A DNA stretch of 39,777 nucleotides, taken from the IMG/VR virus record IMGVR_UViG_2537562191_000049; one strand, written 5' to 3'. This stretch comes from a virus. Taxonomy: Duplodnaviria; Heunggongvirae; Uroviricota; Caudoviricetes. The translations under genes and the position numbers were made by a program. The notes beneath the pieces were generated by a model that saw only the letters and a program-made list of their open reading frames with translations, did not search any database and was not told where the DNA came from. This document shows positions 31,337 through 33,051 of the stretch, one piece after another. Positions within the stretch are counted from its first letter, which is position 1. Each line of letters opens with the position of its first letter.

Positions 31337-31380
31337 TTCCCGCATTTCGGCGGGAATGATGACCATGACTGTTAAAGAGC
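31337..31380 (-). promoter_or_regulatory. nutR (boxA CGCTCTTTA plus boxB hairpin)
   Basis: Minus-strand CGCTCTTTA (31380-31372) followed by hairpin ucccgc-cgaaau-gcggga (31354-31337), between cro and cII; boxB identical to the nutL candidate. Confidence 0.55.
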
Positions 31381-31387
31381 GGTGTTA

Positions 31388-31588
31388 CTATTTGTTTTTC
31401 TTGTTGCTTGGGAAAGGACGAACTTCCTCTCCAATCACACTGCCATCAGGCTTTACCGTAACCATGATGTTACGGCCTGCCAGAATGGCCTTGCTGATAG
31501 CGCACTGGATTACACCAAAGTCACTGGCTGCTTTAGCCTGTCCATGGATTTTGGCGTAATCGGCAAGTGTCATTCGAATCATATGCAC
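31388..31588 (-). CDS. cro: Cro repressor
   Basis: 66 aa; ...[30 protein letters not shown]...[18 protein letters not shown] matches lambda Cro; SD ggaga. Confidence 0.85.
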
Positions 31589-31611
31589 TCTCCGTTATTA
31601 ACCATGAACAA

Positions 31612-31653
31612 AGAATACTACAGGTATTCAAAGCAATCAATACTCAGGGTATT
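31612..31653. promoter_or_regulatory. OR operators with divergent pR/pRM
   Basis: Two AATAC-N5-GTATT sites (31614-31628, 31639-31653); minus-strand pR reads TTGATT-17-TATTCT overlapping the first site. Confidence 0.55.
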
Positions 31654-31688
31654 TTTAGTTTAAGTACCTTAGCTATTAGAATTAAGCT

Positions 31689-32405
31689 ATGGAAAATAAA
31701 AAATCACTGACGACAGAACAGCTCGAAGACGCTAAGCGGCTTAAGGCTTTGTATGAGTCAAAAAAGAAAGAATTGGGAATAACCCAATACTCAATCGCTG
31801 ATGAACTGGGTATCACCCAAGGAGCGGTAGGGCATTATCTTAATGGCAGAAACGCGCTAAACGTTGAGGTCGCATCTGGTTTTGCACGTTTGTTGCAAGT
31901 CTCAATTGCTGATTTTAGCCAGTCAATTGCTGCCAAGGTTGCAGAACAGGCAGAAAGCCTTAAGAGCGATGCCAACGTAAGGTATGCAGGGGAATACAGA
32001 GCAGGAAAGAGGTATCCGGTGTTAAGCAGTATCCAGGCTGGCTCGTGGTGTGAAGCATGCGAACCATACACCATTAAAGACATAGATGTTTGGCTTGAGT
32101 CTGACGCGCATATTCAAGGTAATGCGTTCTGGCTTAAAGTGGAAGGTGATTCAATGACGGCACCGGTTGGGTTAAGCATTCCAGAGGGAACATTCGTTCT
32201 TTTCGATACCGGAAGGGAGGCGATCAACGGCAGCTTGGTCATAGCAAAACTTTCTGACTCTAACGAAGCAACATTCAAGAAGCTGATAATCGACGGCGGA
32301 AATAAATACCTCAAGGGACTTAATCCTGCATGGCCTCTCGTGCCAATCAATGGAAACTGCAAGATTATAGGCGTTGCAATTGAGACAAAACTAAGGCTGG
32401 TTTGA
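31689..32405 (+). CDS. cI: CI repressor (HTH plus intact S24 peptidase domain)
   Basis: 238 aa; N-terminus LTTEQLEDAKRLKALYESKKKELGITQ...; C-terminal AFWLKVEGDSMTAP... and ATFKKLI with Ser and Lys intact, matching lambda CI. Confidence 0.9.
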   Translation: MENKKSLTTEQLEDAKRLKALYESKKKELGITQYSIADELGITQGAVGHYLNGRNALNVEVASGFARLLQVSIADFSQSIAAKVAEQAESLKSDANVRYAGEYRAGKRYPVLSSIQAGSWCEACEPYTIKDIDVWLESDAHIQGNAFWLKVEGDSMTAPVGLSIPEGTFVLFDTGREAINGSLVIAKLSDSNEATFKKLIIDGGNKYLKGLNPAWPLVPINGNCKIIGVAIETKLRLV

Positions 32406-32422
32406 TCACGCAAGGGGCGATT

Positions 32423-32791
32423 ATGGTTGGAACCGCTATAGCAAGCTTTTTTGGGATGTTGGCAATCTCGACAATTTACGGCTTAGCGCATGCTTTTATT
32501 GCGAAATCTCTATCAGAAAAAATAAGCCAGGCTTGGGCGCATAGATCAGCTCGTTTCATGATTCTGGTGATCATAGCAATACAAGGGATATCTGCATTTA
32601 TCCTCTATGGATCAAGCTTATACCTATTGTATCAAGGCGCGACATTTACGCCTTACACCAGTGATTACGGAACTCTATACGATGGTAGTGAAGACATCAC
32701 TGTGGCTTGGATCGTCTTTGGTTTATCTATGGCCGTGTCTGTTGTAGCAGACATCATTAAGGTAATTCTCGTCTTAACCTTCGCTGACTAA
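32423..32791 (+). CDS. Integral membrane protein in the rex position, directly downstream of cI
   Basis: Three to four hydrophobic segments; ATG at 32423 with SD aagggg (the track's TTG at 32402 overlaps the cI stop); followed by OL/pL as for lambda rexAB. Confidence 0.55.
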   Translation: MVGTAIASFFGMLAISTIYGLAHAFIAKSLSEKISQAWAHRSARFMILVIIAIQGISAFILYGSSLYLLYQGATFTPYTSDYGTLYDGSEDITVAWIVFGLSMAVSVVADIIKVILVLTFAD

Positions 32792-32922
32792 CCTATAATC
32801 CCGGCAGCAATAGCTATCGGGATCCACTTCACATATCCCGCATAAAAAGCACTGAACAAGCAGACACCGAAAAAATAAATATCCTTTGTATTCATTTGCT
32901 TATCATTATTTCACCAAAAATA

Positions 32923-32964
32923 AATACCTTGGGTATTTACACAATAAAATACCTACAGTATTCT
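32923..32964 (+). promoter_or_regulatory. OL operators and pL promoter
   Basis: AATAC-N5-GTATT sites at 32923-32937 and 32948-32962; TTTACA (32936-32941), 17-bp spacer, TATTCT (32959-32964) directed toward the N-like gene. Confidence 0.55.
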
Positions 32965-33009
32965 TTAGCCATCAGCAGGGCGCTGGAAGCCAAACGGAAC
33001 AGATTGGCA

Positions 33010-33051
33010 GGCTCTTTAACATTGATGGGATTGTCCCGCCGAAATGCGGGA
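33010..33051 (+). promoter_or_regulatory. nutL (boxA-like GGCTCTTTA plus boxB hairpin)
   Basis: GGCTCTTTA at 33010-33018, then hairpin tcccgc-cgaaat-gcggga (33034-33051), between pL and the N-like start. Confidence 0.5.

Follow-up and report, generated by a model that had tools for sequence, protein, structure and literature searches.

Between cII and N, the window (i.e., the whole 39,777-nucleotide stretch of viral DNA that was analyzed) carries genes in the lambda order cII, cro, cI, hkaS and N. The cII gene (31001-31279, minus strand) encodes 92 amino acids with a Pfam Phage_CII domain (E = 1e-42) and matches cII of phage HK620, while cro (31388-31582, minus strand) encodes a 64-aa protein (Pfam Cro, E = 3.6e-26) that is 100% identical to HK620 Cro and aligns without gaps to lambda Cro (PDB 1COP/6CRO). 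The cI repressor gene (31689-32405, plus strand; 238 aa) is transcribed divergently from cro, the two genes flanking OR, and its product combines a helix-turn-helix (Pfam HTH_3) with an S24 autocleavage domain (Pfam Peptidase_S24). Like Cro, it is homologous to its lambda counterpart along its length: the full-length alignment to lambda repressor (3BDN, E = 3e-52) retains the Ala-Gly cleavage site together with both catalytic residues, Ser and Lys. A homologue of hkaS (32423-32791, plus strand), coding for a 122-aa hydrophobic protein that gave no significant family in the Pfam search, takes the position of, and replaces, lambda rexAB. Finally, N (33159-33431, plus strand; 90 aa) encodes an antiterminator with an arginine-rich arm (NARNRRRARRQAQREQ); it matches Pfam N_peptide (E = 5e-15; 56 bits, cut-off 27.9; arm NARNRRRARRQAQ), and a PDB sequence search with N returned no match.

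Promoters and operators

The GenBank record of HK620 (AF335538; Clark et al. 2001, J Mol Biol 311:657) annotates OR1-3, OL1-3, pR, pL, nutL and nutR, which serve here as reference points. pL (32936-32971, plus strand), identical to the pL annotated in HK620, was picked up by the promoter scan, with its -35 hexamer TTTACA, 17-nt spacer and -10 hexamer TATTCT at 32936-32964. pR (31605-31640, minus strand), read directly from the sequence at 31640-31612 (TTGATT at 31640-31635, a 17-nt spacer and TATTCT at 31617-31612), coincides with the pR of HK620; it agrees with the consensus at 8 of 12 positions and falls under the threshold of the promoter scan. A putative pRM (31654-31689, plus strand; -35 TTTAGT, 17-nt spacer, -10 TAGAAT at 31677-31682) can be read upstream of cI, the HK620 record having no annotated pRM. 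From it, transcription is predicted to begin at the A of the cI ATG and, as no Shine-Dalgarno sequence precedes this codon, the cI mRNA is probably leaderless, a likeness to lambda, where cI also lacks such a sequence. The pRE region (31256-31295, plus strand), with the CII-binding repeat TTGC-N6-TTGT (31257-31270), is identical to the pRE and cII protein_bind features of HK620.

The four AATAC-N5-GTATT operators proposed in the initial annotation are exact matches, at 31614, 31639, 32923 and 32948, and their overlap with the sigma70-like hexamers of pR and pL was confirmed base by base: at both promoters O1 sits on the -10 and O2 reaches into the -35, as in lambda. None of these sites has a strand. 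OR1 (31613-31629; GAATACTACAGGTATTC), with a match in HK620, overlaps the -10 of pR, and OR2 (31638-31654; CAATACTCAGGGTATTT) covers 3 bp of its -35 and adjoins the -35 of the putative pRM; on the other side, OL1 (32947-32963; AAATACCTACAGTATTC) overlaps the -10 of pL and OL2 (32922-32938; AAATACCTTGGGTATTT) covers 3 bp of its -35. A motif search of the whole 39.8-kb window found AATACNNNNNGTATT four times and no exact copy outside OR and OL, against 0.01 expected from shuffled sequences (0/100 shuffles reached four). Scattered extra copies are likewise missing from HK630, an independent phage with a complete genome, where exact operators and boxB occur only at the expected places. The list of four is real and at the same time incomplete, as it omitted both a degenerate OR3 and a one-mismatch site beside OL (32878-32892). 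OR3 (31662-31678, no strand; AAGTACCTTAGCTATTA), annotated as such in HK620, is weak, its core (31663-31677) having two arm mismatches and lying 24 bp from OR2.

The operators, with the consensus half-site nAATACyn, span 17 bp and are symmetric about a central base pair; they are spaced 25 and 24 bp apart, and the center of OR2 is at about -43 from the cI ATG. Length, axis, spacings, OR2 position and the tripartite OR with a weak OR3 are all shared with lambda, even though the spacers in the window are one bp longer. The lambda half-site, in contrast, is TATCACCG, differing at positions 1, 3 and 4, and the Cro recognition helix differs in parallel (H2 Ser to Cys, H5 Asn to Ser). Naturally occurring changes are located between sites or in the central N5, and none affects the arms of OR1, OR2 or OL2; in two loci an arm of OL1 is mutated (GTATT to GTACT), and thus not every OL1 copy is necessarily functional.

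For comparison we used 115 distinct cII-to-N segments of relatives, i.e., 88 with the same Cro/cI and 27 heteroimmune ones. Four exact operators were present in 86 of the 88 segments with the same Cro/cI (the other two had three) and AATAC-N5-GTATT operators in none of the 27 heteroimmune segments (0/27). One heteroimmune group has a motif of its own, ATAAC-N4-GTTAT, in the OR (three sites 24-25 bp apart) and OL regions. This distribution bears on the possibility that the AATAC/GTATT repeats are shared promoter sequence of a duplicate pL/pR pair and not repressor binding sites. The right arm GTATT does overlap the -10 TATTCT at both promoters, so that part of the similarity is promoter sequence; however, neither the O2 sites nor the left arms serve as promoter elements, yet they are perfect inverted repeats, and the motif is wholly lost when cI/cro is replaced, though pL and pR must still exist. 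Moreover, the half-site agrees with the recognition-helix code of Cro: for a helix with Gln, Ala and Lys at H1, H3 and H6, as found here, a published "evolutionary code" of Cro predicts A2, A5 and C6, exactly those of the observed half-site nAATAC. We consider a promoter-only origin of the repeats extremely unlikely and treat them as predicted repressor operators.

A candidate third operator in OL

The OL3 annotated in HK620 corresponds to 32900-32916 (no strand; TTATCATTATTTCACCA; one base differs from HK620). We rejected it on its sequence, as its half-sites (TTATCATT and TGGTGAAA) are unlike nAATACyn; it also contains four variable positions. Twenty-three bp further out lies a candidate distal operator (32877-32893, no strand; AAATATCCTTTGTATTC) with one arm mismatch and its center 45 bp from OL2, which the HK620 record does not label as an operator but places inside "tIMM". 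By its sequence this site fits the operator consensus far better than the annotated OL3 and is a candidate to replace it.

Alternatively, OL might consist of the two strong operators only, the site at 32878-32892 being a chance match or conserved for another reason, with no functional OL3. Phage 933W manages with two OL operators, and about 0.94 sites with at most one mismatch are expected by chance per window, the HK630 genome indeed having two such sites elsewhere. The distance of 45 bp also departs from the usual 22-25 bp, yet it places the site in the same helical phase as a spacing of 24 bp would, and the chance of a random site falling within 100 bp of OL is ca. 0.005 (arithmetic from the expected count). 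Conservation could have come from a possible 34-codon minus-strand ORF starting at 32894, whose first codons the site overlaps; this explanation was left unsupported because the nearby variable positions show no third-codon bias (2/8 variable sites in 32795-32895). The site itself is present in 118 of 118 loci with the same cI, with changes seen solely in the central N5, which is the pattern of proven-type operators. An OL with two operators only thus remains a serious contender, to which we give somewhat less than an even chance.

nut sites and the arm of N

Identical boxB hairpins had been claimed for nutL and nutR, and TCCCGCCGAAATGCGGGA does occur twice, at 31338-31355 (minus strand) and 33034-33051 (plus strand), with no further copy in the window even at three mismatches. 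In the folded RNA (UCCCGC-CGAAAU-GCGGGA; -9.7 kcal/mol, z = -2.9) six base pairs close a 6-nt loop; the claim of a six-base loop in place of the lambda pentaloop holds, the loop being CGAAAU and no alternative register yielding five. nutL lies between pL and N, and nutR, whose boxB is within the nutR annotated in HK620 and invariant in 113 distinct relatives, just after cro. The initial annotation passed over a consensus boxA (GCTCTTTAACA) 12-14 nt upstream of each hairpin: that of nutL is at 33011-33021 (plus strand), and that of nutR at 31370-31380 (minus strand), where it follows the cro stop codon by 8 nt and precedes boxB by 14 nt. Among relatives, the spacer between boxA and boxB of nutR occurs in seven variants, whereas boxA and boxB do not vary. 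The boxA-spacer-boxB layout, with one nut site per early operon, is that of lambda and P22, although boxA is the full rrn-type GCTCTTTAACA and not the CGCTCTTA of lambda.

Both boxB copies are exact in 114 of the 115 distinct segments, across five immunity types and three C-terminal domains of N, including 26 of the 27 heteroimmune segments, where they are retained along with the same N arm. In the remaining one (L046), N and boxB are both those of lambda. At least three different C-terminal domains follow residues 1-30 of N among the relatives, and the boxB that goes with them is UCCCGC-CGAAAU-GCGGGA in every case. The coherent specificity that had been predicted for the window is thus seen in the 115 relatives: operators follow cI/Cro and the boxB pair follows the N arm. 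As read from these sequences, cI/cro and the operators are swapped as one unit, and boxB and residues 1-30 of N as another, a clean natural example of modular exchange.

Could the two hairpins be generic RNA stability or termination elements that N does not bind? Such a reading accords with the lack of covariation in their stem, which is invariant among relatives, and with the lack of any Rfam family over 30700-33700 at E up to 1. No U run follows either hairpin, however, and a perfect boxA stands 12-14 nt before both of them, at the canonical nutL/nutR positions. Against it stand also the retention of both copies with the same N arm across four other immunity types, the lambda-type nutR boxB at the one locus with a lambda-type N, and the GAAA within the loop, similar to the GNRA-like loops that boxB has in lambda, P22 and phage 21. 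We regard generic elements as very unlikely and go on with the hairpins as predicted N-binding boxB.

The N arm shares the arginine-rich A-x-x-RRR-x-RR pattern and the Pfam N_peptide family with lambda and P22. By BLASTP its match to lambda N is weak and not significant (E = 0.09) and differs from the hand alignment, and for this reason our only claim on the likeness of the arms is that this one is free of aromatic residues between positions 8 and 40. In lambda N, Trp18 provides aromatic stacking in boxB recognition, and the arm described here has no aromatic residue able to play this part. The loops differ too, those of lambda and P22 having five bases (GAAAA/GAAGA; GACAA) and that of the window six, with no extruded fifth base needed. 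A precedent for six bases is the N peptide-boxB complex of phage 21 (PDB 1NYB; Cilley & Williamson 2003), as given in PMC12550061. Four of these bases are able to form a GNRA-like fold flanked by a pyrimidine-pyrimidine mismatch, as they are here, the phage 21 loop being C-UAAC-C and that of the window C-GAAA-U. Loop sequence, stem and N arm differ between the two, and the central four bases of the window are a true GNRA (GAAA). The six-base loop thereby resembles the phage 21 subtype and not the five-base subtype of lambda and P22.

Taken jointly, a boxB whose true GAAA tetraloop is stacked on a C-U mismatch and recognized by an N arm without aromatic residues, and 32878-32892 as the true third OL operator form a tentative reading that we consider rather doubtful as a whole. 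If it were true, N-boxB recognition would have, in the GAAA-tetraloop boxB, a third structural solution next to those of lambda/P22 and phage 21, and the distal operator, two helical turns beyond the annotated OL3, would imply cooperative or looped cI binding over 45 bp.

Predicted regulation and the HK620 immunity group

The region is 98.3% identical to HK620 over 2.44 kb, with OR1-3, OL1, OL2, pR, pL, nutL, pRE and cro identical. Differences are confined in cI to 4 nt (its N-terminal domain being 99% identical), in nutR to one spacer nucleotide and in the annotated OL3 to one base, while the C-terminal part of N is 88% identical. In contrast to HK620, the copy in the window belongs to a Stx-phage-like prophage within a chromosome of the E. 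coli O111 type, with an IS629/IS1203 insertion in gene O, owing to which this prophage looks unable to replicate. Genes, gene order and geometry fit a lambdoid immunity region, and we are highly confident that this is the control center of a lambdoid prophage with HK620 immunity and N specificity.

Direct binding, footprinting or antitermination experiments for the HK620 immunity type were not found in the searchable literature. Around the observed sequences, positions, statistics, HK620 identity and co-travel of sites with proteins, we infer that the proteins bind, and do so cooperatively, where pRM starts, and that antitermination depends on N. Dimers of cI in the lysogen would bind the operators, OR1 and OR2 covering pR and OL1 and OL2 covering pL, and thereby shut off both early promoters; cI at OR2 sits beside the weak pRM -35 and probably stimulates synthesis of a leaderless cI-hkaS mRNA, and the weak OR3 would allow negative autoregulation. 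Upon RecA-stimulated self-cleavage of cI, pL and pR would fire and Cro would bind the same operators. Each early transcript would carry a nut site (boxA and the boxB hairpin), to which the arginine-rich N terminus may bind at boxB and, together with host NusA/B/E/G, let RNA polymerase pass terminators; transcription from pR would then cross tR1 and reach cII and the replication genes, and that from pL would reach the early-left genes.

The region had already been annotated in HK620 in 2001, and the immunity switch is not new. Most of it is present in at least 146 of 5,426 complete genomes of E. coli, and other carriers include HK630, HK140, mEpX2 and Stx-phage relatives such as phi296 and phi367. 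Phage records with named hosts exist for HK620, HK630, phi296 and phi367, which we take to form plaques, and all four have the same module. The initial annotation was right and the finding is an ordinary one, the imm-HK620 results leaving current understanding unchanged. The practical value is small but real: the region assigns the prophage to the immunity group imm-HK620, common to these phages, and therefore a host with the same cI should resist superinfection by HK630, HK140, mEpX2 and the Stx-phage relatives (phi296, phi367), which would hold despite the replication-defective look of the prophage.

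Gene order and identity to HK620

The region is a textbook lambdoid switch, already annotated in HK620, and its gene order, read in window orientation, runs opposite to the conventional lambda map. cII (31001-31279, minus strand; Pfam Phage_CII, 1e-42) is followed by nutR, cro (31388-31582, minus strand; Pfam Cro, 3.6e-26), OR, cI (31689-32405, plus strand; Pfam HTH_3 and Peptidase_S24), a homologue of hkaS (32423-32791, plus strand), OL and pL, nutL, and finally N (33159-33431, plus strand; Pfam N_peptide, 5e-15). Cro aligns with lambda Cro without gaps, and cI aligns full-length to lambda repressor (E = 3e-52), retaining the Ala-Gly cleavage site as well as the catalytic Ser and Lys. 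The hkaS homologue, a 122-aa hydrophobic protein belonging to no Pfam family, is probably co-transcribed with cI and occupies the position of rexAB in lambda. As such it is a candidate for an exclusion or membrane protein expressed in the lysogen.

Over 2.45 kb, the region matches phages vB_EcoP_phi296 and phi367 and E. coli O111:H8/H2 chromosomes at 100% identity; the figure is 99.5% for mEpX2 over the shared part, 98.3% for HK620 and HK630, and 97.4% for HK140. The HK620 GenBank record (AF335538) annotates pRE, tR1, nutR, pR, OR1-3, tIMM, OL1-3, pL and nutL. With its features mapped onto our sequence (window coordinate = locus coordinate + 29489), OR1, OR2, OR3, OL1, OL2, pR, pL, nutL, pRE and cro show zero mismatches and nutR a single one, located in its spacer. 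Given this agreement, the finding rediscovers features already published and annotated.

Two further elements lie near cII. A strong intrinsic terminator (31003-31035, plus strand; 14-bp stem and downstream T run) is antisense to the cII 3' end, at the position of the OOP antisense RNA terminator in lambda; an Rfam search gave no match there. At 29456-30762, an IS3-family insertion (IS629/IS1203 type) sits ca. 60 nt into the homologue of replication gene O, by comparison with phage phi296, and a related O111:H8 genome carries an IS1203 copy elsewhere, between cII and cro. The prophage has probably lost the ability to replicate, with its immunity module intact.

Operators, promoters and the Cro half-site

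The initial annotation proposed four AATAC-N5-GTATT operators overlapping sigma70-like pR and pL promoters, together with identical nutL and nutR hairpins, and all of these were found where it had placed them, confirming the observation as written. A pattern search for AATACNNNNNGTATT across the whole 39,777-base window returned exactly four occurrences (OR1, 31614-31628; OR2, 31639-31653; OL2, 32923-32937; OL1, 32948-32962) and no scattered copies, against a mean of 0.01 in dinucleotide-preserving shuffles. pL (TTTACA-17-TATTCT, 32936-32964, plus strand) was the sole sigma-70 site reported in the region by the promoter scan; pR (TTGATT-17-TATTCT, 31640-31612, minus strand; 8/12 positions matched) was confirmed by direct reading. 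At both promoters O1 lies over the -10 hexamer and O2 shares three bases with the -35 hexamer, and the centre-to-centre spacing is 25 bp for OR1-OR2 and OL1-OL2 and 24 bp for OR2-OR3; the geometry is that of lambda. The candidate OR3 (AGTACCTTAGCTATT, 31663-31677), absent from the initial annotation, has two mismatches and stands 24 bp from OR2. From these sequences we infer binding and cooperativity at the operators.

A putative pRM, whose -10 would be TAGAAT (31677-31682) and whose weak -35, TTTAGT, abuts OR2, would start transcription at the A of the cI ATG. No Shine-Dalgarno sequence precedes this ATG, thus the cI mRNA would be leaderless, as it is in lambda, and OR2 would centre at about -43, the activating position for pRM.

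The recognition helix of Cro was compared with that of lambda (Y-Q-S-A-I-N-K-A-I-H). The published Cro "evolutionary code" pairs Gln at H1 with an A in position 2, Ala at H3 with an A in position 5, and Lys at H6 with an opposite-strand G in position 6 (PMC6649833). By direct reading all eight strong half-sites are nAATAC, so that A2, A5 and C6 hold in 8/8, and the three predictions agree (3/3) in the 17-bp register used by HK620. Lambda half-sites differ at positions 3 and 4, and its helix carries Ser at H2 and Asn at H5 where Cys and Ser are found here; these replacements may account for the half-site changes.

At OL our reading departs slightly from the HK620 annotation. The OL3 annotated in HK620 (TTATCATTATTTCACCA, 32900-32916) bears no likeness to the operator consensus and contains four variable positions. 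A one-mismatch site missing from the initial annotation (AATATCCTTTGTATT, 32878-32892) is separated from OL2 by 44-45 bp, a distance that keeps the helical phase of a 24-bp spacing, and is kept in 118/118 loci with this cI, its sole variant falling in the central N5; the probability of a random site this near OL is about 0.005. With only moderate confidence, we rate it above the annotated site as a candidate for OL3. Between hkaS and OL, a possible hydrophobic ORF of 34 codons (MNTKDIYFFGVCLFSAFYAGYVKWIPIAIAAGIIG, 32790-32894, minus strand) shares the bases of its first codons with this site; no clear Shine-Dalgarno sequence precedes the ORF, and natural variation in it shows no third-codon bias.

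The nut sites

The 18-mer TCCCGCCGAAATGCGGGA occurs twice in the window (31338-31355, minus strand; 33034-33051, plus strand), with no further copies when up to three mismatches are allowed, and folds into a 6-bp stem with the 6-nt loop CGAAAU (-9.7 kcal/mol, z = -2.9), bearing out the proposed six-base loop. A perfect boxA GCTCTTTAACA, absent from the initial annotation, lies upstream of each hairpin on the same strand, in nutL at 33011-33021 (plus strand, 12-nt spacer to boxB) and in nutR at 31380-31370 (minus strand, 14-nt spacer). Some 40 nt separate nutL from the pL start upstream of it, and nutR lies 8 nt past the stop codon of cro, ahead of tR1 and cII; N-nut antitermination is predicted here. 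Phage 21 provides a precedent for a six-base loop: in its CUAACC boxB, a GNRA-like UAAC is flanked by a C-C pair (PMC12550061). The C-GAAA-U loop here could fold as a genuine GNRA tetraloop over a C-U mismatch. In the N arm, no aromatic residue is available to take the part of lambda Trp18.

Specificity across related phages

We retrieved 160 IMG/VR loci with N and Cro as queries and collapsed them to 115 distinct cII-to-N segments. Four exact operator sites are present in 86/88 segments with this Cro/cI and three in the other two; L017 and L126, two of the compared loci, share an OL1 arm change from GTATT to GTACT (window-equivalent position 32961) that could be an operator-weakening mutation. 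Elsewhere in the operators, natural variation touches the central N5 or the stretches between sites and spares the OR1, OR2 and OL2 arms. None of the 27 segments with a different repressor has an exact operator site, and 26 of them retain both exact boxB copies and this N arm. The exception, L046 (IMGVR_UViG_2595698474_000001, 2516-4273), has two tandem N genes, the first lambda-type and paired with a lambda-type nutR boxB (GCCCTGAAAAAGGGC), the second, downstream, HK620-type and preceded only by a hybrid, mismatched broken half boxB (GCCCTCCGAAATGCGGGA). Another locus, L045, has a similarly truncated boxB.

The heteroimmune loci form four groups. One of these (10 loci, including L009, L019, L023 and L024) has the same N/nut and cII flanks around a different repressor module, with an ATAAC-N4-GTTAT palindrome at three OR-region sites 24-25 bp apart and at one in the OL region. 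N residues 1-30 are joined with three or more distinct C-terminal domains, with the same boxB in every case, and the nutR spacer varies (seven variants) between an invariant boxA and an invariant boxB. As the operators accompany this Cro/cI and are absent with other repressors, and boxB accompanies the N arm, with the pattern of natural variation in agreement, the predicted coherent specificity is upheld by the comparison; the interpretation of immunity and N specificity stands, and only the statement that sequence alone "defines" them went too far. The same early region occurs in HK630 (JQ086376; L165, 33573-39392), whose N-cI-cro-cII-O-P block is of HK620 type and whose structural, recombination, Q and lysis genes are annotated as lambda-like; the complete genome contains the exact operator motif only four times and the boxB only twice. 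HK630 is a natural imm-HK620 hybrid of lambda, essentially lambda with this early region.
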